From Sedimentisphaerales bacterium (GTDB lineage: Bacteria; Planctomycetota; Phycisphaerae; Sedimentisphaerales; Anaerobacaceae), in the NCBI GenBank assembly GCA_030630905.1, contig DAOVMB010000001.1, positions 1-24,013 of the forward strand: a DNA stretch of 24,013 nt, in the 5' to 3' direction. Positions 201 to 24,013 of the stretch are shown here, piece by piece. A model generated the notes under the pieces. It searched no databases and was not told the DNA's origin. It saw only the letters and a list, made by a program, of their open reading frames with translations. Position 1 is the stretch's first letter. Every line of letters starts with the position of its first letter. Position numbers and translations under genes: made by a program.

Positions 201-1139
201 GTGGACGTATCCATTATCATAGTCAACTGGAATACGAAAGGACTCCTTCGAGATTGTCTTTCCTCGGTTTATGAACATGCAGGTGGTGTTGATTATGAAA
301 TTATCGTCATCGATAACGCCTCGACCGACGGTTCGGCTGGAATGGTAAAGAATGACTTCCAGCAGGTAATTCTCATAGCGAATACGGAAAACCGGGGCTT
401 TGCTACTGCTAATAACCAGGGGATGACTGTCGCTAAAGGAAGATATGTGCTCCTGCTTAATAGTGATACGGTTGTTTTGGATAACTCTATAGCTAACACA
501 GTTAGTTTTGCTGATGAGAATCCGCAGGCAGCGGTGGCAGGTTGCCGGGTATTAAATCCTGACCGAACCCTACAACGAACGTGTTTTATGTTCCCCTCGA
601 TATTGAATATGCTGTTATCAAGCACTTATCTGTACAAATTATTCCCGAAGAACAGGTTCTTCGGACGTGAGCAAATGACCTGGTGGGACAGGAGCGACAT
701 ACGCCATGTAGATGTTGTGACGGGTTGCTTTATGCTTGTCAGGCGAGAAGCAATCGAACAGGTTGGCGTGATGGATGAGCAGTTCTTCATGTACGGCGAA
801 GAAACCGACTGGTGTTATCGATTCTGGGAGAAGGGCTGGAAAGTAATGTTTGCCCCGGTTGGCGAAATTATTCATTTTGGCGGTCAAAGCGCAGCACAGA
901 AGCCTGTGGCTATGATTGTTCAGTTGAGGCTAAGCATCCTTAAATTCATTAAAAAACACTATGGCTGGCTGTCGTACCTGATCGCACGTTTTCTGACTGC
1001 CTTTTTTTTCGCCGTTCGTCTTCCGGCATGGTTAGCTGTGTTTTCTTTCCGGCCGGCTGTAAGGAGTAAAGCAGCCGTCAAAATACAAGCTTACTCCGCC
1101 GGCATTGTAGATGTTCTTTTTGGTCGGGTTGACCTGTGA
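201..1139 (+). CDS. GT2 family glycosyltransferase (WbbL/RfbF-like subgroup)
   Basis: GTG start. Motifs: VSIIIVNWN, DNASTDGS, NRGFATANNQG, LLNSD (DxD-like), VTGCFMLVRRE, FFMYGEETDWCYR. Confidence 0.92.
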   Translation: MDVSIIIVNWNTKGLLRDCLSSVYEHAGGVDYEIIVIDNASTDGSAGMVKNDFQQVILIANTENRGFATANNQGMTVAKGRYVLLLNSDTVVLDNSIANTVSFADENPQAAVAGCRVLNPDRTLQRTCFMFPSILNMLLSSTYLYKLFPKNRFFGREQMTWWDRSDIRHVDVVTGCFMLVRREAIEQVGVMDEQFFMYGEETDWCYRFWEKGWKVMFAPVGEIIHFGGQSAAQKPVAMIVQLRLSILKFIKKHYGWLSYLIARFLTAFFFAVRLPAWLAVFSFRPAVRSKAAVKIQAYSAGIVDVLFGRVDL

Positions 1140-1200
1140 AAGGGTGCCTGTGCACTGTAAATCTTGGTATTGTCTTGAAGTCAAGAGAATAGGGAATTAT

Positions 1201-2862
1201 ATGAAAAATCTATTGCAGTCGATGGCAAAAACGAATAGGAAGCGGACAAGTGCCATCTGCGTATTTTTCCTGTTGGCGATTCTGTTGTTCTGTCGGTTCA
1301 CTTATGGCGAGCAGCAAATTGTTCAATTCGGAATTACGTGGACATTCGACAAAGATTATACCGTCGGTCAATTTGCAAACGGCGATTACTGGGTGTTCGG
1401 ACCGGTGATCATAATAGGAATAAATCCGGCTTCTGTTGAGTTAAATGGTAGGATAATAAACGGTTCTATGGTAAACCCATCGCCAAAACTTGGACAAAAA
1501 CAGGGTTACGACAGTGCAATGTACGGAAGAATCGCCAGGCCCGGGGACTATGATCCGGATCTAAATGTTGCTCGTCCTGATGGCCGGGATCTCTCGGAGA
1601 GTAATCCTTTGGTTCTTCCGCCTGATTGCTCTCTGGTTTCTGCTACAAGCACTCCGCATACAAATGATCCTACGGTATTACAGACAGCGGCAATTCTGAC
1701 AGTTCTGGGCGATTCTGCCCCGGAAGGGAGCTTCAGACCTCCTTACTGCGGCACCGATAAGACAATTAGATTCAATAAAAGTCGATTGGACTACTCTTTA
1801 CTTGCCAGCTTAAGACCTGTGCCCGGTTTACCCGGCCTTTCAACGATGGAACGCACTTTTGAACGGCCGTGGCTGGACCATGTCCCCAATTGGCCGAACC
1901 GTTGTCTTCATCCGGTCGATAATATGCCCGGCTTCGGCAGGGAATTAGCCACACAGATAGGCGTTGGCGCCTTGATGCTTAACCTTAATTTCAAGAACGC
2001 GCAGAAAGAAACGCTTCTTATTCGGTATGTGCAGTTAGGTATTGACCTTTATGGAATTGTCCAGGACGGGGGAAAAAAGAACTGGATCAATAATGGTGCG
2101 CATAACAGCGGACGTAAGTGGCCGATTCTGTTTGCCGGGCTTATGCTTGACGATCCATCCATGAAGAATATCGGGAGGCCCGATATTCCGGACTATGGCC
2201 CCCTGCACCCGGAGTACGTTCATTTCGGAGAAGATGACCAGACGTTTTATGTAACTCAGGCGGATGTGGACGTGAGTCACAGCCCCCAGTGGGACCCAGA
2301 TCCGAGGGATCCTCAGCTAATTCCGTACGAACAGGAGGATATTGGCCTTCCTGAGTGGGGAATCCTATATGCGACCGGCCCACACAGGAGCAACAAGTTC
2401 TGGAATACGTCATATAGAAGGGTAAGTTGTCCATCATGGGGTGGATTTGTCCTGGCAGCGCATATCATGGGAGCGAAGGATTTATGGAACCATGATGCCC
2501 TGTTTGATTTCAAAGACCGTTATATGCAGGCCGCCGCCGATTGGAGACAGATGTCCAGGTTCGTGGAGGCCATGTGGGATACCTACCGCAAAGATTATGG
2601 TCCTGTGTGGACGATGTCTCCCACGCTAAATTTTGTCGCAGTTGGTGGCTCCGTCGCAAAAGCCCCGGATAAGGCAGCCTATACGCTTGGCGAGAGAGTG
2701 AGGCTGAGAGTTGTCGCCGATCCCGGATACGAGTTTGCAGGTTGGTCGGGTGGTTTATCCGGGACGGAAAATCCGGTGGCGATAATTATGCACGCTAAAC
2801 GAACGATCACGGCGAATTTTACCGTTGCCTCTAAATCTCCGAAGTCGACGAGCGATAAATAA
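1201..2862 (+). CDS. Secreted protein of unknown function with one C-terminal InlB-B/Flg_new-type repeat
   Basis: ATG 1201 follows a purine-rich RBS (agggaa); alternative ATG at 1222. The basic n-region and hydrophobic h-region (RKRTSAICVFFLLAILLFCRFTYG) suggest a Sec signal peptide. A ~440-aa domain that I cannot assign follows, then the repeat domain. The track start at 1111 overlaps the GT2 gene. Confidence 0.8.
   Translation: MKNLLQSMAKTNRKRTSAICVFFLLAILLFCRFTYGEQQIVQFGITWTFDKDYTVGQFANGDYWVFGPVIIIGINPASVELNGRIINGSMVNPSPKLGQKQGYDSAMYGRIARPGDYDPDLNVARPDGRDLSESNPLVLPPDCSLVSATSTPHTNDPTVLQTAAILTVLGDSAPEGSFRPPYCGTDKTIRFNKSRLDYSLLASLRPVPGLPGLSTMERTFERPWLDHVPNWPNRCLHPVDNMPGFGRELATQIGVGALMLNLNFKNAQKETLLIRYVQLGIDLYGIVQDGGKKNWINNGAHNSGRKWPILFAGLMLDDPSMKNIGRPDIPDYGPLHPEYVHFGEDDQTFYVTQADVDVSHSPQWDPDPRDPQLIPYEQEDIGLPEWGILYATGPHRSNKFWNTSYRRVSCPSWGGFVLAAHIMGAKDLWNHDALFDFKDRYMQAAADWRQMSRFVEAMWDTYRKDYGPVWTMSPTLNFVAVGGSVAKAPDKAAYTLGERVRLRVVADPGYEFAGWSGGLSGTENPVAIIMHAKRTITANFTVASKSPKSTSDK
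2626..2826 (+). other. Listeria/Bacteroides InlB-B-like (Flg_new / divergent InlB B-repeat) domain
   Basis: GGSVAKAPDKAAYTLGERVRLRVVADPGYEFAGWSGGLSGTENPVAIIMHAKRTITANF fits the pattern G.V...P....Y..G..V.L.A....GY.F.GWSG...G..NP....M......TANF. Confidence 0.8.
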
Positions 2863-13674: not shown

Positions 13675-14670
13675 ATGCAAACATGTAAAAAATGTGTATT
13701 GAACGAACGTTTTATAGGGATTCGGTTTGATGATGATGGTATCTGTAACTTTTGCCGCTCGGCAAAGAGTCCGGATCAACAGCGATCCATCAGGGGTAAA
13801 TATGAAGCCAGATTTCAGAAACTTATTGAAGAGCACAAAGGCAAGGGCAGCTACGATGCTCTGGTGGCCTACAGTGGTGGCAAGGACAGCACATACACCC
13901 TCCACTTGTTACAGGAGCGGTACGATCTGAGACTATTGGCGTACTCCTTTGACAACTGGTTTCAGTCGGACAGGGCCAAGCTAAATATCCGTGCTGTACT
14001 GAGCAATATTAACGTGGATCATTTGACGGTAACGCCGAGCTTCGAGAGTATAAAAAAGATTGTTCTGGCTTCCATGTCCAAAGATATGTACTCGGCCAAG
14101 GCGATGACAAGGGCGTCCAGTATATGCACGAGCTGTATTTCTCTGGTACGATTTATCGGTTTCAGGCTTACTATCGAGCAGGAGATTCCCTTTCTGATAT
14201 TCGGGATGTCGCCGGGTCAGGCGCCGATGGCTACGGCAGTAGTTAAAACAAATCCCCAGATGATAAGAACAATGCAGGAAACACTGCTGCGTCCTCTGTC
14301 CGATCGGTTGGGTGATATTATCAAACCCTTCTTCCTGGAGCAAAGGCACTTTGACAAGGTAGAAGATTTTCCGTACAGCATCAATCCACTGGCGTTTGTA
14401 GACTACGATGAGGATGTGATTTATGAGACTGCGGACAAATACGGATGGAAAAAGCCCGATGACACAGACGCCAACTCCACCAACTGCCTGTTGAATGCTC
14501 TGGCTAACCAGGTTCACCTGGATCAGTTAGGCGTCAATCCTTATGCTTATGAGATAGCTGAATTGGTTCGCGTCGGGTGTATGACAAGAGAGCAGGGATT
14601 AGCCAGGTTGGCGGAACCTTTCCCGGCCGAGCAAATTGCGGCGGTGAAGAAACAGCTCGGAATCGGTTGA
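13675..14670 (+). CDS. PP-loop ATPase, N-acetyl-sugar amidotransferase (WbuX/WbpG/PseA-like) family
   Basis: N-terminal CKKC...CNFC, YDALVAYSGGKDS, C-terminal Y..IAELVRVG.MTREQGL. AGGAG/AGGTGG upstream. Confidence 0.75.
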   Translation: MQTCKKCVLNERFIGIRFDDDGICNFCRSAKSPDQQRSIRGKYEARFQKLIEEHKGKGSYDALVAYSGGKDSTYTLHLLQERYDLRLLAYSFDNWFQSDRAKLNIRAVLSNINVDHLTVTPSFESIKKIVLASMSKDMYSAKAMTRASSICTSCISLVRFIGFRLTIEQEIPFLIFGMSPGQAPMATAVVKTNPQMIRTMQETLLRPLSDRLGDIIKPFFLEQRHFDKVEDFPYSINPLAFVDYDEDVIYETADKYGWKKPDDTDANSTNCLLNALANQVHLDQLGVNPYAYEIAELVRVGCMTREQGLARLAEPFPAEQIAAVKKQLGIG

Positions 14671-14678
14671 TTCATTAC

Positions 14679-15548
14679 ATGAAGGTCAGGTCACTTCAGA
14701 TATTCATAGCTGTAGCAGCTTTCTCGGCTGTTGGGATTCTGACAATGGTTATAACAAGAATGAAAACGAGGACAGACTCTAATAAAATAGCACTGCCGTC
14801 GATTGATGATGTACCCAAAGAATATTGGGCGAAACTTGCTGAGAAGAAGATTTTCTTCGGGCATCAATCAGTCGGGTACAACATTATTGGTGGAATCACG
14901 GATATCATAAACGAGCGAGACTATATAAAACTCAATGTCATAGAAGCACGCGAACCTGCGGCTTTTGACCAACCTGTTTTTGCTCATTCCCAGGTAGGTA
15001 TGAACACGGATCCTTTCTCGAAGATCAAACGCTTTGGGGAAATAATGGATGCCGGCGTCGGGAGCAAAGCCGATATAGCGTTTTTCAAGTTCTGCTATGT
15101 TGATATTATGCGGAATTCGGATCCGCAGGAAATCTTCGATGGTTATCGTGCCGTAATGAAAGAATTGAAGGACCGATATCCCAGTACAAAGTTCCTGCAC
15201 GTAACTGTTCCGATACGTTCGGCGCCAAAGGGAGCCAAGAGAAATCTGAAACAGACAGTTAAGTCGTTAATTGGCAAACCAGGTGTTCTGGACGATAACA
15301 TGATGCGCCAGTGTTATAATAAGTTGTTAAGGAACGCTTACTCTAAAACGGAACCTTTCTTCGACCTGGCCCTGATAGAATCTATCAATCCGGACGGTTT
15401 TGGTTGTCACGTTGTAAAAGGAGCGGAGAAAGTTAATGTCATGGCGCCTGAATACACCGAAGATGGTGGACACCTTAATAGCCGGGGCGGGAAAATGGTG
15501 GCTGAGCAGTTGCTGATAATCCTCGCAGAAATGGCGAGCCGCTCTTAG
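14679..15548 (+). CDS. Membrane-anchored SGNH/GDSL-like hydrolase or transacylase (putative)
   Basis: One N-terminal hydrophobic segment (IFIAVAAFSAVGILTMVI). IFFGHQSVG sits at the block-I position (14859-14870) and EDGGHLN..G matches the block-V DxxH (15462-15473). Block III is non-canonical (KFCYVD). Start placed at ATG 14679, 8 nt after the upstream stop. Confidence 0.6.
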   Translation: MKVRSLQIFIAVAAFSAVGILTMVITRMKTRTDSNKIALPSIDDVPKEYWAKLAEKKIFFGHQSVGYNIIGGITDIINERDYIKLNVIEAREPAAFDQPVFAHSQVGMNTDPFSKIKRFGEIMDAGVGSKADIAFFKFCYVDIMRNSDPQEIFDGYRAVMKELKDRYPSTKFLHVTVPIRSAPKGAKRNLKQTVKSLIGKPGVLDDNMMRQCYNKLLRNAYSKTEPFFDLALIESINPDGFGCHVVKGAEKVNVMAPEYTEDGGHLNSRGGKMVAEQLLIILAEMASRS

Positions 15549-15595: not shown

Positions 15596-16618
15596 TTGAA
15601 CTCATTTGTTGAAAACCAAACTGTTAAAACACTGTTTCAATCGATAGCCGGAGTCAAGCCGGCGGTTGTTTCCCGACAGCCCCGGATAGCCAATATAGAA
15701 CGGTTGCGTATTGTCTCTGCGTTCGGCATTGCCTCCTTTCATACCCATGATTGGTTTCCGCGGAGCATTGGTGTGGCTGGTTTTATTATTCTGTTGCTGA
15801 GTTATTGTGCCTTTGTTGTAAACAAGCCTGAACCATACGGCATCGCCGAGGTGGCAAGACGAAAGGCGCGACGTCTTCTTAAACCATGGTTGTTTTGGTC
15901 GATCATATATGGTGGCCTCGGATTAGCAAAGATGGTTTATGAGAACGTATCGTTTTCAGATGTTTTTTCTCCGACGATGCTTTTGACCGGAACTCGAATA
16001 CATCTATGGTTTCTGCCTTTTGCTTTCGTTGCCGCTTTATTTCTCACTTTGATACATCGAAGAATAGTAGGTATTGCTGACTCATTTACGATTACAACTG
16101 CAATTTCAATCGGGGCTTTATGTATATTTGGCTGTTCAGTTATCCAGTCCCGGCTTCACCCTCCAACGCCGCTGGCTCAATGGACTTTGGGATTGCCGGT
16201 AATACCTCTTGGTTTTGCTATTGGCCGGATCAAGATTTTGCAGAGAACCGAAGACAGAAAAAAGTATTTCGTATTCGTAATTCTTTCGACTTTGACGGCA
16301 TGTGTGGGATGTATGGTGTTTGACCGGTTAAGCTATGGGATATGGTTGAATTACAGCAGCAAATTTGCGATTCGATACTTTGTTTCTTTGATAATATTCT
16401 GTTCTGCATTGCATTGGCGAGGCAAGTTGGATCTGGTTTCAGTGAATTTGGCATCGTTATCATACGGCATTTATCTTGTTCATCCCTTGGTATTGGTTTT
16501 TTTATATCGATTTGGTATAGCTATGCAGCATCCATTTTTGTTGCTGTTTATAGTATTGTCTATTTCGTTACTGATAACATTTGTTCTTAAGAAAACGCCG
16601 TTGAAACAGTTTGTTTGA
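15596..16618 (+). CDS. Acyltransferase family 3 (OafA/NodX-like) polytopic membrane acyltransferase
   Basis: RIANIERLRIVS..GI..FH (R..xD/ExLR motif), RRKARRLLKPWLFWS, HLWFLP, SYGIYLVHP, about 10 hydrophobic segments. The TTG start is uncertain. Confidence 0.8.
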   Translation: MNSFVENQTVKTLFQSIAGVKPAVVSRQPRIANIERLRIVSAFGIASFHTHDWFPRSIGVAGFIILLLSYCAFVVNKPEPYGIAEVARRKARRLLKPWLFWSIIYGGLGLAKMVYENVSFSDVFSPTMLLTGTRIHLWFLPFAFVAALFLTLIHRRIVGIADSFTITTAISIGALCIFGCSVIQSRLHPPTPLAQWTLGLPVIPLGFAIGRIKILQRTEDRKKYFVFVILSTLTACVGCMVFDRLSYGIWLNYSSKFAIRYFVSLIIFCSALHWRGKLDLVSVNLASLSYGIYLVHPLVLVFLYRFGIAMQHPFLLLFIVLSISLLITFVLKKTPLKQFV

Positions 16619-16643
16619 TATCGACAGGGCCGAAAGTATCTAA

Positions 16644-18611
16644 ATGCAGATTGCTAAAGCTATTATACTTGTAGGAAATCGTGACTTCGGGCGGTGTCCG
16701 CTTGCATCACGTTTGCCTACGGCTTTGTGGCCGGTAGCGGGGATATCTGTATTGGAACGCCTGCTGAGCCATTTAGTCGATCAGGGTATAAAAGAGGCAG
16801 TTATATGCGGCAGTGGTGCAAGTTCGTTAGTGGACAAAATGAATATTACTGATAATCGTTTGGCGTTGAGTATTTTTGATGAAACATTGCCGATGGGTAC
16901 CGCAGGATGTATTCGTGAGGTTGCCGGCGATCAAACTGAAGAATTACTTCTGGTGTTTCCCGCCGGCATAGTGTGTCCCCCGAAAATCGATATGCTGATA
17001 AAAGCACACCGTGACGGTCAGTCTGATTTAACTGTAATGTTGAATCCATGTTGTCGAAGCAAGACAGATATGGGCGAGGCATCTGGAATTTATGTTTGTA
17101 ATCCGGGTATCTTGAAACATATTCCAAAGGCAGGTTATTTTGATATCAAAGAAGGCTTGATTCCTAAGATGCTCCATGCCGGAAGAACAGTTCATGCCGC
17201 AAAGTTGCCATATCATGCCGGGAATTTTCGGAATCGGCAAGAATATTTATGTGCTGTTTCCAGTTACCTTGAAAATGTTCCAAAAATGAATGCGGATTTT
17301 AAATCCCTTAATAGCACCGATTCCGAAAATGTGTGGTTGGCGGAAAATGCAAAGGTTGATCCTAAAGCAAGAATTGATGGGCCGGTTGTTATTCTGGACG
17401 GTGCAACAGTATCGAGCGGGGCGGTTGTTCTCGGACCGGCCATCCTTGGGAAAAATGCTGCTATTAATAAAGATAGCGTTGTAATAAATAGTGTGCTATG
17501 GGATGACGCAAAAGTGGGCTCAAATTGTCAAATCCAGAGATGTGTGGTCGATTATCATGGAGTAGTTCGAGATAATGCCGTTATGGAAGATAAATCTATA
17601 TCATTCGAACCCGAGGGAGTGTTAGGACGTGTGGTCGATCTCGCCTCAATGGTTGTGAAAAATAATGCGAGTAGATTGCAGCTCGTATTGCAACCGCTTG
17701 ACAAAATTTCCGAAAAATTTCCGAATTGGACATGGTTGAGCAGAAAGAATATTCTGACATTTCTGGCATTAGGTCTTGTCTGTATCGCGTTTCTTTGGTC
17801 TTACTGGCCCGGCCTTGTTGAGCTTTGGGAATTGTGGCAACAAAGCGATGAATATTCCTCCGGTCTTTTGGTTCCTTTTCTGGCTGTTTATATCCTTTGG
17901 TCAAGGCGTCGTGATATAGCCTGTTGTCCTGTCAAGCCATCTATCTGGGGTTTGTTTGCTTTCGCGGGGGCCCAGGCAGTCAGACTTTTCGGGCTTTTCT
18001 TAATGTACAGTTCTGCAGAAAGGCTATCCGTAGTCCTGAGTATTGCTGCTTTGATATTACTGTTATTTGGCTGGAAGTTTTTCCGAAAGATATCTCCAAT
18101 ATTATTGTTTCTGTGTTTGATGCTGCCCCTGCCGAACATCATCCAGTACCATGTCGGCTTGAATCTGCAGCGTTGGGCTACTTCATCGGCGGTCTTCTGC
18201 CTTGAGGTGATAGGATATGCAGTCACACAGGACGGCCATACCATTGATATGGGTAACGTTAGTGTTGCGGTGCTTGAAGCTTGCAACGGCTTGAGAATGA
18301 TCACCGCCTTTTTTGTCATCAGCGGACTGGTTGTTCTACTGGTACAACGAACCTGGTGGGAAAAACTGGTCATTCTGGTTTCAAGCCTGCCTATTGCCTT
18401 ATTGTGTAACACTGTTCGATTGGCAATTACAGCGGTGTTTTTCACTATTCTTGAAGGTGAGTATTGGGAACAAATATTCCATGACTTCGGTGGGTATGCG
18501 ATGATGCCATTGGCTCTTGCGGCGGTAGTTGGCGAGCTTTGGCTTTTGGCAAAACTCACGGTGCTTCCAACCGAAGAAAAAGCAATAATAATTACACGAC
18601 AGGGGGGGTGA
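16644..18611 (+). CDS. Fusion protein: degenerate sugar-nucleotidyltransferase + LbH domain fused to an exosortase (EpsH/8TM)
   Basis: Residues 1-~210 resemble an NTP transferase (AIILVG..., LWPVAG.SVLERLL, MGTAGCI, SGIYV, FDIKEGLIP). Residues ~225-320 are hexapeptide repeats. From ~370 the protein is an exosortase: W....EYSSGLLVP, V.EACNGLR (Cys547), NTVR (Arg592), FHDFGG (His613). The frame is uninterrupted. Confidence 0.88.
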   Translation: MQIAKAIILVGNRDFGRCPLASRLPTALWPVAGISVLERLLSHLVDQGIKEAVICGSGASSLVDKMNITDNRLALSIFDETLPMGTAGCIREVAGDQTEELLLVFPAGIVCPPKIDMLIKAHRDGQSDLTVMLNPCCRSKTDMGEASGIYVCNPGILKHIPKAGYFDIKEGLIPKMLHAGRTVHAAKLPYHAGNFRNRQEYLCAVSSYLENVPKMNADFKSLNSTDSENVWLAENAKVDPKARIDGPVVILDGATVSSGAVVLGPAILGKNAAINKDSVVINSVLWDDAKVGSNCQIQRCVVDYHGVVRDNAVMEDKSISFEPEGVLGRVVDLASMVVKNNASRLQLVLQPLDKISEKFPNWTWLSRKNILTFLALGLVCIAFLWSYWPGLVELWELWQQSDEYSSGLLVPFLAVYILWSRRRDIACCPVKPSIWGLFAFAGAQAVRLFGLFLMYSSAERLSVVLSIAALILLLFGWKFFRKISPILLFLCLMLPLPNIIQYHVGLNLQRWATSSAVFCLEVIGYAVTQDGHTIDMGNVSVAVLEACNGLRMITAFFVISGLVVLLVQRTWWEKLVILVSSLPIALLCNTVRLAITAVFFTILEGEYWEQIFHDFGGYAMMPLALAAVVGELWLLAKLTVLPTEEKAIIITRQGG

Positions 18612-22833: not shown

Positions 22834-24013
22834 ATGCCGGGAAGATACTTTAACTGGAAATTGGCAATTGTTTTGGTTATCAGCCTTATTGTTTTAGGCA
22901 TAAGCGCTTTTGGACTTCGCCAATGGCGCAGGACCAATAGAGCCGATCAGGGTCTTATCCTTGGCAATAAGGCATATAACGAGCATAGGTGGGAAGATGC
23001 GGCGGAACATCTGGGAAGTTATATTACTTTGGAACGAAATAACGTGTCTATATTGCTTAAATATGCTGACGCTCAGCTTAAAATCAGGCCTGCCAAACGT
23101 AACAGAATTCAACAAGCCATCGGAGCATATCGAACTATATTAAGAGTAGATAGAAATAATTCCGAAGCTGCTATGCAGCTTACTGAAATCTACCTGGGTA
23201 TAGGCAGTCCCGGCGAAGCGGAGCTAATTGCCAGAAGACAGCTTGAAACCAATCCGGATCCCGGTCTTCGGAGGATGTTGGCCCTTGCGATGGCTGGACA
23301 AAGAAAGTTCAAAGAAGCAGCAGCGGAATTAAAGAGCATTTTACAGGGACATCCTGAGCAGGTATTAGCATACGAAACATTAGGCCGACTTATAGAGCAG
23401 CGTCCGGGAGATTTTAAGGATGTGCCGTCCCATTGGTTCAATCAGGCCGTGGAGAAAAATCCGTCTTCTGCTTTGGCATATATAATACGAGCGGGTTTTT
23501 ATCGAAGAAGTGAAGACTTATCAAGTGCTTCATCTGACCTGGAACGAGCCGAAAAGCAGGATTTGTCTGATTCATCTGTCCGTTTGCGTCTTGCACAAGA
23601 ACTTATCAATTCAAATGCTCTCGACAAGGCAGAGGTGCATCTTGTTGCAGTGCAAGAAGCCTCGCCAACTGACAAGGATCTTTGGACAACATGGGCCGGG
23701 CTTGCATTGAAATCACGATCTAAAGAAAAAATGTTAAAAATAGCCGAAACAGGATTAAAAGAGCTTTCTTCTCAGCCATGGGATTTTATGCCCCTGGCCA
23801 CTGAGTTATTTATCCGTTCCGGTAAGCTCGAAGATGCTAATGACTGTATCTCTAAAATGTACGAAAAGGATGTTTCTTCGGCGTCAATTACATTCTTGCG
23901 AGGTCTTGTGGCTTCCGGGCAGGGAAATCTGCTTGGTGCGGTCAAATATTGGCGGCAGTCAATGGAATCAGGTAACAAATCCATACATGTCCGCCTGGCA
24001 TTGGCATCGGGGC
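22834..24013 (+). CDS. Membrane-anchored tetratricopeptide-repeat protein, 5' part (runs off the window)
   Basis: My translation from ATG 22834 is open to the window end: MPGRYFNWKLAIVLVISLIVLGISAFGLRQW (TM anchor), then helical repeats with TPR signatures (e.g. QAIGAYRTILRVDRNNSEA, KFKEAAAELKSILQGHPEQ, WFNQAVEKNPSSALAY). It is missing from the ORF track because it has no stop. Confidence 0.85.
   Translation, partial: MPGRYFNWKLAIVLVISLIVLGISAFGLRQWRRTNRADQGLILGNKAYNEHRWEDAAEHLGSYITLERNNVSILLKYADAQLKIRPAKRNRIQQAIGAYRTILRVDRNNSEAAMQLTEIYLGIGSPGEAELIARRQLETNPDPGLRRMLALAMAGQRKFKEAAAELKSILQGHPEQVLAYETLGRLIEQRPGDFKDVPSHWFNQAVEKNPSSALAYIIRAGFYRRSEDLSSASSDLERAEKQDLSDSSVRLRLAQELINSNALDKAEVHLVAVQEASPTDKDLWTTWAGLALKSRSKEKMLKIAETGLKELSSQPWDFMPLATELFIRSGKLEDANDCISKMYEKDVSSASITFLRGLVASGQGNLLGAVKYWRQSMESGNKSIHVRLALASG

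Follow-up and report, generated by a model that had tools for sequence, protein, structure and literature searches.

The window analysed here is a 24,013-nucleotide stretch (positions 1 to 24,013, forward strand) of contig DAOVMB010000001.1 from the metagenome-assembled genome (MAG) of a Sedimentisphaerales bacterium (Planctomycetota, Phycisphaerae; GenBank assembly GCA_030630905.1). It is an exopolysaccharide locus encoded on a single strand (+), in which an exosortase gene is followed by genes for a Wzc-like kinase, a priming sugar transferase of the polyprenyl-phosphate glycosyl-phosphotransferase (PGT) type and a tetratricopeptide repeat (TPR) protein. The exosortase gene is unusual in that its open reading frame (ORF) of 655 codons runs without interruption through a nucleotidyltransferase (NTase)-like domain, a left-handed beta-helix (LbH), a linker and the membrane domain, in agreement with an earlier note on this DNA that had read a single frame joining a transferase-like module to an exosortase. 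Pfam assigns NTP_transferase to residues 6-133 (first half of the profile only, E 4e-5), LbH_EIF2B to 228-319 and Exosortase_EpsH to 381-635 (E 7.6e-55). Among NCBIfam models the N-terminal part resembles mannose-1-phosphate guanylyltransferase and the LbH gives weak glgC/glgD matches, the likeness to GlgC/GlgD being one of analogy only. The coordinates of the features are given in Table 1.

Table 1. Features of the fused exosortase gene and of the genes downstream of it, in window coordinates.
Feature	Position	Strand	Evidence
Whole fusion gene, 655 aa: pseudo-NTase, LbH, linker, exosortase	16644..18611	+	Single ORF, Pfam architecture
NTase-like Rossmann-type domain, aa 1-210, GDP-mannose-pyrophosphorylase-like, catalytically degenerate	16644..17273	+	AlphaFold2, Foldseek, family-wide catalytic losses
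Variant glycine loop G11-N-R-D-F-G-R-C-P19 in place of GGxGxRLxP	16674..16700	+	Alignment columns; DNA read directly
Left-handed beta-helix, aa 228-320	17325..17603	+	Pfam LbH_EIF2B, Hexapep_GlmU, Hexapep; short strands, pLDDT 92-97
Helical linker, poorly conserved, aa 321-366, basic SRK at its end before the first transmembrane helix	17604..17741	+	pLDDT 55-63; 14.5% mean identity
Exosortase membrane domain, aa 367-640	17742..18563	+	PF09721 E 7.6e-55; TIGR02602 above cut-off
Codon of catalytic Cys547	18282..18284	+	Invariant 65/65
Codon of Arg592	18417..18419	+	Invariant 65/65
Codon of His613	18480..18482	+	Invariant 65/65
Wzc-like chain-length determinant / tyrosine autokinase, 783 aa	18689..21040	+	TIGR01007 122 bits, above cut-off
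Priming polyprenyl-phosphate glycosyl-phosphotransferase P0122, 577 aa	21080..22813	+	Bac_transf E 1.9e-61 (core aa 381-570), LbH_EIF2B
Second dead NTase-like + LbH module (predicted), aa ~95-345 of P0122	21362..22114	+	hhalign, AlphaFold2, Foldseek
TPR protein, weakly PrsT-like, open at window end	22834..24012	+	TIGR02917 PrsT E 2.7e-19, below cut-off

The exosortase domain scores 186.5 bits with PF09721 (cut-off 25.7), 127 bits with TIGR02602 (cut-off 105.55) and 53.2 with TIGR04178 (cut-off 23), and Cys547, Arg592 and His613, the triad that had been read as intact in the earlier note, are invariant in an alignment of 65 fused homologues. The polytopic membrane domain, the invariant Cys, Arg and His, the exopolysaccharide locus and the PEP-CTERM substrates are all features shared with the EpsH/XrtA-family exosortases (PF09721/TIGR02602). 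Unlike these, the fusion protein falls below the cut-off of every named subtype (XrtD 174 vs 400, XrtW 147 vs 425, XrtA 137 vs 208 and XrtV 88 vs 313), has no EpsI domain and carries a pseudoenzyme module of 345 residues at its N-terminus. The MAG (3.0 Mb in 525 contigs, 64% complete) holds this exosortase only; in more complete relatives the fused exosortase is accompanied by one or two stand-alone ones. Canonical PEP-CTERM tails, in which [IV]PEP[ATN]T is followed by a hydrophobic helix and then by RKR-type residues, number at least five in the MAG, on proteins of 221-321 residues encoded on contigs C132, C155, C268, C305 and C490, none of them within the window, and these five proteins are likely substrates of the exosortase. 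Judged from these sequence features, the gene encodes a working PEP-CTERM exosortase.

An AlphaFold2 model of the fusion protein, built on the alignment of the 65 fused homologues, reached a mean predicted local distance difference test score (pLDDT) of 86.4. A Rossmann-type domain (residues 1-210, pLDDT mostly 80-96), a beta-helix (230-320) in which G264 and P265 are invariant in the alignment, and a helical membrane domain (367-640) are all modelled with confidence; the helical linker (326-365) has low confidence. Searching the model against the PDB with Foldseek gave tlr0611 (8x7s) as the top match (E 3.5e-19, target-normalised template modelling score 0.6-0.68), with further matches to 7x8j/k, Arabidopsis VTC1 alone and together with the pseudoenzyme KJC2 (VTC1-KJC2, 8yre), human GMPPA/GMPPB (7d72) and eIF2B-epsilon (E 1e-19 to 1e-15), and to structures of ADP-glucose pyrophosphorylase. 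The module is accordingly modelled as a Rossmann-like NTase fold followed by an LbH, the same two-domain fold as in GMPPA/GMPPB, VTC1/KONJAC and eIF2B gamma/epsilon. The first transmembrane helix (TM1) is flanked by a basic SRK just before it and an acidic SDEYSSG after it, which fits an N-in orientation; the module, which precedes TM1, is therefore predicted to lie in the cytoplasm, as the earlier note had thought likely.

The catalytic residues were compared through a HMMER alignment to the Leishmania GDP-mannose pyrophosphorylase 7whr, with the residue roles taken from its published description (PMC9424295). The phosphate-anchoring R21 of 7whr corresponds to G16, within the loop GNRDFGRCPL, and the signature K31 to T26 (LPTAL); the Mg ligands D118 and D226 are replaced by G108 (FPAG) and N194 (AGNF), and the F(V)EKP loop, which carries the lysine K170, is shortened from 35 residues in 7whr (146-180) to 11 (136-146). 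Across the 65 fused homologues, whose identity goes down to 24%, position 108 is occupied by S, N, A, G, T or C and position 194 by N, S, E, T, A or H, with no Asp among the common residues at either, and the signature Lys position 26 is variable (Arg in 21, Thr in 12, Pro in 9, Leu in 6, Ala in 4 and Lys in 4 of the sequences). Neither the signature GGxGxR(L)xPLx5PK with conserved Arg and Lys nor the two Mg-binding Asp together with the F(V)EKP catalytic loop is thus found, whether in the alignment to 7whr or among the 65 homologues. The replaced signature, the lost catalytic Lys, the FPAG and AGNF substitutions and a deletion in the transferase domain had all been pointed out in the earlier note, and each of them holds.

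That note had also described the signature as degenerate, which is right as to the loss of the canonical residues but not as to what took their place: a replacement motif, G-x-x-D-F-G-R-C-P, is the family consensus in about two thirds of the sequences or more (D14 in 45, F15 in 49, G16 in 50, R17 in 44 and C18 in 42 of the 65). The base-binding loop E80-x-x-P83-x-G85-T-A-G88 is retained and largely invariant, and G85-T-A-G88, D167, K169, E170 and Y201 vary hardly or not at all (Y201 is kept in 64/65). Compared with the reference, the exosortase has a mean identity of 53%, the NTase domain 37% (34% as the other figure for the module) and the linker 14.5%, so that the module changes faster than the exosortase does, and far slower than the linker. 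The conserved replacement motif and base-binding loop, together with this moderate divergence, mark the module as a conserved pseudoenzyme and not as decaying sequence, and purifying conservation acts on both loops. An active, non-canonical nucleotidyltransferase making an activated sugar at the membrane could draw on R17, which stands one position after the canonical Arg in the conserved loop, and on the retained GTAG loop; with Asp uncommon at either Mg position, an unconstrained Lys position and the F(V)EKP loop deleted, we find this scarcely tenable. In its sequence and predicted fold, the N-terminal module is a catalytically dead pseudoenzyme of the GDP-mannose pyrophosphorylase type, and the pseudo-nucleotidyltransferase plus LbH identity first proposed for it stands, with the catalytic residues lost family-wide.

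The distribution of the fusion was assessed with a word-indexed search over proteins of ENA, JGI, NCBI and Logan assemblies, which gave more than 120 homologues at 67-96% identity, nearly all of 600-680 residues and with the identical precomputed Pfam architecture. Where named, they carry the label 'exosortase' only, and the databases contain hundreds of these fusion proteins annotated in this way. Searched exhaustively, the 50%-identity cluster representatives yielded a list of about 60 clusters whose proteins have 600-700 residues and align nearly end to end. The fused gene is present in 21/21 named species representatives, mostly labelled Sedimentisphaerales or Phycisphaerae, with other labels on some MAGs. 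In a sample of 301 Planctomycetota genomes, the N-terminal module was matched in 12 genomes besides the window's own, and exosortase fusions of 633-677 residues were found in ten (nine and the window's own), covering several families and extending outside the class.

An assembly or read-through artefact is ruled out by the homologues from independent assemblies and by Logan contigs of two cold-seep studies that cross the domain junction without indels. One of these covers 16583-18311 with 2 differences, from a run that may be the source sample of the window's assembly, and the other, from the second study, covers 16400-17861 with 14 differences. The idea that relatives always have two genes is ruled out as well, a module-only ORF of 372 residues looking like the product of a chimeric contig. 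This ORF lies at 474-1661 of a TARA contig of 1.6 kb (L024); it stops just at the beginning of a fragment, in inverted orientation, of a PGT-type module (FTVSNGRF...), and the contig is probably a chimeric or inverted assembly, not a true split gene. A stand-alone exosortase (P0200, L025:110-1090) has 59% identity to the exosortase domain and a cytoplasmic head of only 45 residues, and no module ORF was found in the 109 bases upstream of it; the clade therefore holds both fused and unfused members. The fusion sequence occurs in cold-seep and marine-sediment metagenomes. In one cold-seep metatranscriptome run (X19), fragments that are 90-95% alike were found over both the module and the exosortase halves (window 16579-18557); they derive from a relative, carry-over of DNA is possible, and transcription of the window's gene is not thereby shown.

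The exosortase fusions named in the 2006 description of the system involve EpsI and CAAX-protease-like domains only (Haft 2006, PMC1569441). In NCBIfam release 20 the fusion protein passes no dedicated model, and in the searchable library we found no paper that links an exosortase in any relevant manner to a pseudoenzyme or to a nucleotidyltransferase, guanylyltransferase or pyrophosphorylase; for exosortases of Planctomycetes or Phycisphaerae the search returned general papers only. The fusion, which the earlier note had not recognised as described, is a real, conserved and undescribed variant of a known exosortase system.

A second module of the same kind was identified in the priming transferase P0122. 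Like the large PGTs of the WbaP/CpsE/WcaJ type, P0122 has a Bac_transf core and is the priming enzyme of an exopolysaccharide locus; unlike the WbaP-type enzymes, it has an N-terminal extension that matches no WbaP-type N-terminal Pfam domain and that is predicted to fold as a soluble NTase-like plus LbH module. The extension, of about 370 residues and with its LbH ahead of the Bac_transf core, is kept in 120 homologues among the matches listed. With hhalign, the stretch 94-342 of P0122 pairs over 218 columns with the stretch 70-303 of the exosortase module (probability 99%, E 2e-18), an overlap that takes in the LbH and the latter half of the NTase fold; because BLASTP between the two modules aligned the LbH alone (E 1e-4), the homology of the NTase part needed profile comparison to be seen. 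The AlphaFold2 model of P0122 is confident over residues 100-345, for which Foldseek finds the same set of PDB structures (E 3e-10), and poor over the catalytic core (pLDDT 30-50), where the alignment is shallow. The P0122 module has no glycine loop and retains a hairpin that the exosortase copy has lost. By profile alignment and predicted fold, the two dead modules are homologous.

The two fusion genes also keep company. In the named loci, the Wzc-like kinase gene follows the fused exosortase in 21/21, and the order fused exosortase, Wzc-like kinase, fused PGT is found in all 18 that reach far enough. Within the 301-genome sample the trio is present in this order in eight distant genomes, on the same contig and strand and about 4.5 kb apart, and is confirmed by Pfam in three of the eight. 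In two further lineages, G136 and G289, a module that matches the exosortase type is fused to the PGT and not to an exosortase. The G136 fusion (L029:4583-6679) shares with the exosortase module the motif Y-x-D-I-K-E (here Y-L-D-I-K-E) and the shortened loop, and has a closer-to-canonical LAGGPGSVRMP loop, and in G289 (L011) a stand-alone exosortase lies on the same contig about 2 kb from the PGT fusion. As read from these genes, the alternative wirings keep the module association.

Both eIF2B gamma/epsilon and VTC1/KONJAC assemble through NTase and LbH domains, in part as seen in the solved complexes matched above. The same is true of the Leishmania GDP-mannose pyrophosphorylase and of human GMPPA/GMPPB (PMC9424295). 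Considering that solved proteins of this architecture oligomerise via these domains, the pairing of the two modules was tested by structure prediction. The predicted heterodimer of the exosortase and PGT modules gave interaction scores from aligned errors (ipSAE) of 0.65, 0.61 and 0.65, compared with 0.00 for the best of three controls, a mark that is reached by 58/80 solved complexes and by 2/110 mismatched pairs, although this calibration holds only roughly because custom alignments were used. The predicted interface joins the LbH faces of the two modules; in it the retained PGT hairpin (167-180) meets both the truncated-loop region of the exosortase module and its K169/E170 helix.

Our preferred reading is that the two dead modules would pair at the inner face of the membrane, and that the exosortase would thereby be tethered to the enzyme with which synthesis of the lipid-linked polysaccharide begins. 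PEP-CTERM sorting would then be coupled in space or time to exopolysaccharide initiation, and a nucleotide or nucleotide sugar may also be sensed by the module through its retained base-binding loop. That a docking, and possibly sensing, pseudoenzyme module couples the two processes is a suggestion drawn from models and from analogy with known complexes, and we hold it to be evenly poised between right and wrong. The docking role proposed in the earlier note gains indirect support from the related dead module on the PGT in 18/18 loci and from a predicted heterodimer that passes its controls. The control of protein sorting that the same note ascribed to the domain stays conjectural. Several points weigh against this coupling. 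The prediction score may be owed to solved complexes, those of GMPPA/GMPPB or VTC1-KJC2, that the model remembers, and either module could score as well when paired with itself. The residues of the predicted interface show no clear excess of conservation over the remainder of the modules: for the exosortase module their conservation is 0.43 vs 0.41 elsewhere, a value as high being reached by 32% of random subsets, and for the PGT module it is 0.77 vs 0.68 elsewhere, with 5% of random subsets as high. Gene neighbourhood by itself is weak evidence for contact, and the stand-alone exosortase P0200, having no module, indicates that exosortase activity as such can do without it. The anatomy stands on firm ground; the coupling mechanism is plausible but unproven.

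The possibility that a homodimer could score equally well bears on a second explanation, in which the LbH would build dimers or trimers of the exosortase and, separately, of the PGT, without cross-talk between the two enzymes. The bacterial GDP-mannose pyrophosphorylase dimerises solely via its C-terminal LbH and the Leishmania enzyme is a hexamer formed by such contacts (PMC9424295), and a heterodimer prediction cannot separate hetero- from homo-pairing of related modules. A scaffold of this kind does not agree, however, with the complementarity of the two modules, the hairpin being kept in the PGT copy and deleted in the exosortase copy, nor with their co-occurrence as a fixed pair, and we consider it rather unlikely.

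A third explanation makes the module a pure allosteric sensor, which would bind a nucleotide or nucleotide sugar and gate the exosortase in cis via the linker, with no contact to the PGT. The retained base-recognition loop and the conserved G-x-x-D-F-G-R-C-P at the phosphate-loop position would both serve such a sensor, neither the GTAG nor the DFGRCP loop lies within the predicted interface, and GMPPA has been reported to bind GDP-mannose. Yet the residues that hold the phosphate, the Mg and the sugar phosphate are gone, the whole F(V)EKP loop included; the linker to TM1, less conserved than any other part of the protein, would make a poor conduit for allostery; and the strictly syntenic second module on the PGT is left unexplained. 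A purely sensing role is in our view unlikely; nucleotide (or nucleotide-sugar) sensing by the module, as the earlier note had supposed, would be no more than compatible with the retained E-x-x-P-x-G-T-A-G loop.

The kinase gene that lies between the two fusion genes in 21/21 loci brings in a further candidate role, in which the modules would recruit the Wzc-like tyrosine kinase or be phosphorylated by it. The kinase carries the Walker A motif GMKEGKTT and, at its C-terminal end, the Tyr cluster SYYRHGHSYY, and priming transferases and sugar-nucleotide enzymes are among the reported targets of phosphorylation or modulation by bacterial tyrosine kinases (BY-kinases). On the module side, Y201 aligns with a conserved Tyr of active GDP-mannose pyrophosphorylases and is therefore not specific evidence for phosphorylation, and a role as kinase adaptor or substrate seems to us a long shot. 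The kinase ORF is listed from a TTG, and an ATG seven codons inside it may be the true start.

Set beside the known pseudo-pyrophosphorylases, the module resembles those of the GMPPA type in its lost catalytic residues and its retained base-binding loop and, if the prediction is right, would also resemble them in pairing through the LbH faces with a paralogous module. It differs from the GMPPA, KONJAC and eIF2B pairs in that both modules are dead, so that there is no active pyrophosphorylase being regulated, and in that the membrane enzymes to which they are fused serve different pathway steps; the outright deletion of the F(V)EKP loop in the exosortase copy is a further difference from GMPPA-type pairs. 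If the docking of the two modules holds, it would add a bacterial, membrane-tethered case to the pseudo-pyrophosphorylase regulators GMPPA, KONJAC, eIF2B gamma/epsilon and GlgD. To our knowledge, PEP-CTERM/exosortase systems have been linked to exopolysaccharide loci by gene neighbourhood only since their description in 2006, and we know of no account of the acceptor of the sorting reaction or of its physical link to polysaccharide synthesis. Related dead modules on an exosortase and a priming transferase, with a conserved pairing and alternative wirings, offer a concrete hypothesis of physical coupling that can be tested with the soluble domains. A bolder form of it, in which a hetero-complex of exosortase and PGT, perhaps with Wzc, held together by the dead modules, would hand cleaved PEP-CTERM proteins straight onto the nascent lipid-linked glycan, we regard as quite improbable; were it true, this would amount to a protein-polysaccharide conjugation line and would identify the acceptor of exosortase transpeptidation that has long been sought.

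The remaining genes of the window are in keeping with an exopolysaccharide locus. Upstream of the fused exosortase are genes for glycosyltransferases, an Alg14/Alg13-like pair, an acetyltransferase, an AsnB-like amidotransferase and a NadE-like protein, together with an acyl-CoA ligase that comes close to the exosortase-A-associated type, an aminotransferase, a WbuX-like protein, a GDSL protein and an AT3 acyltransferase. As in XrtA loci, the amidotransferase, acyl-CoA ligase, tyrosine kinase and TPR neighbours match the associated NCBIfam models, below cut-off. Among the glycosyltransferases is a protein of 583 residues (window 1111-2862) whose C-terminal InlB-B-like repeat is matched by Flg_new_2 and whose main domain matched no Pfam or NCBIfam family. 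The WbuX-like ORF (13675-14670) and the GDSL-like ORF (14577-15548) overlap by 94 bases as listed, and the latter probably starts further downstream.

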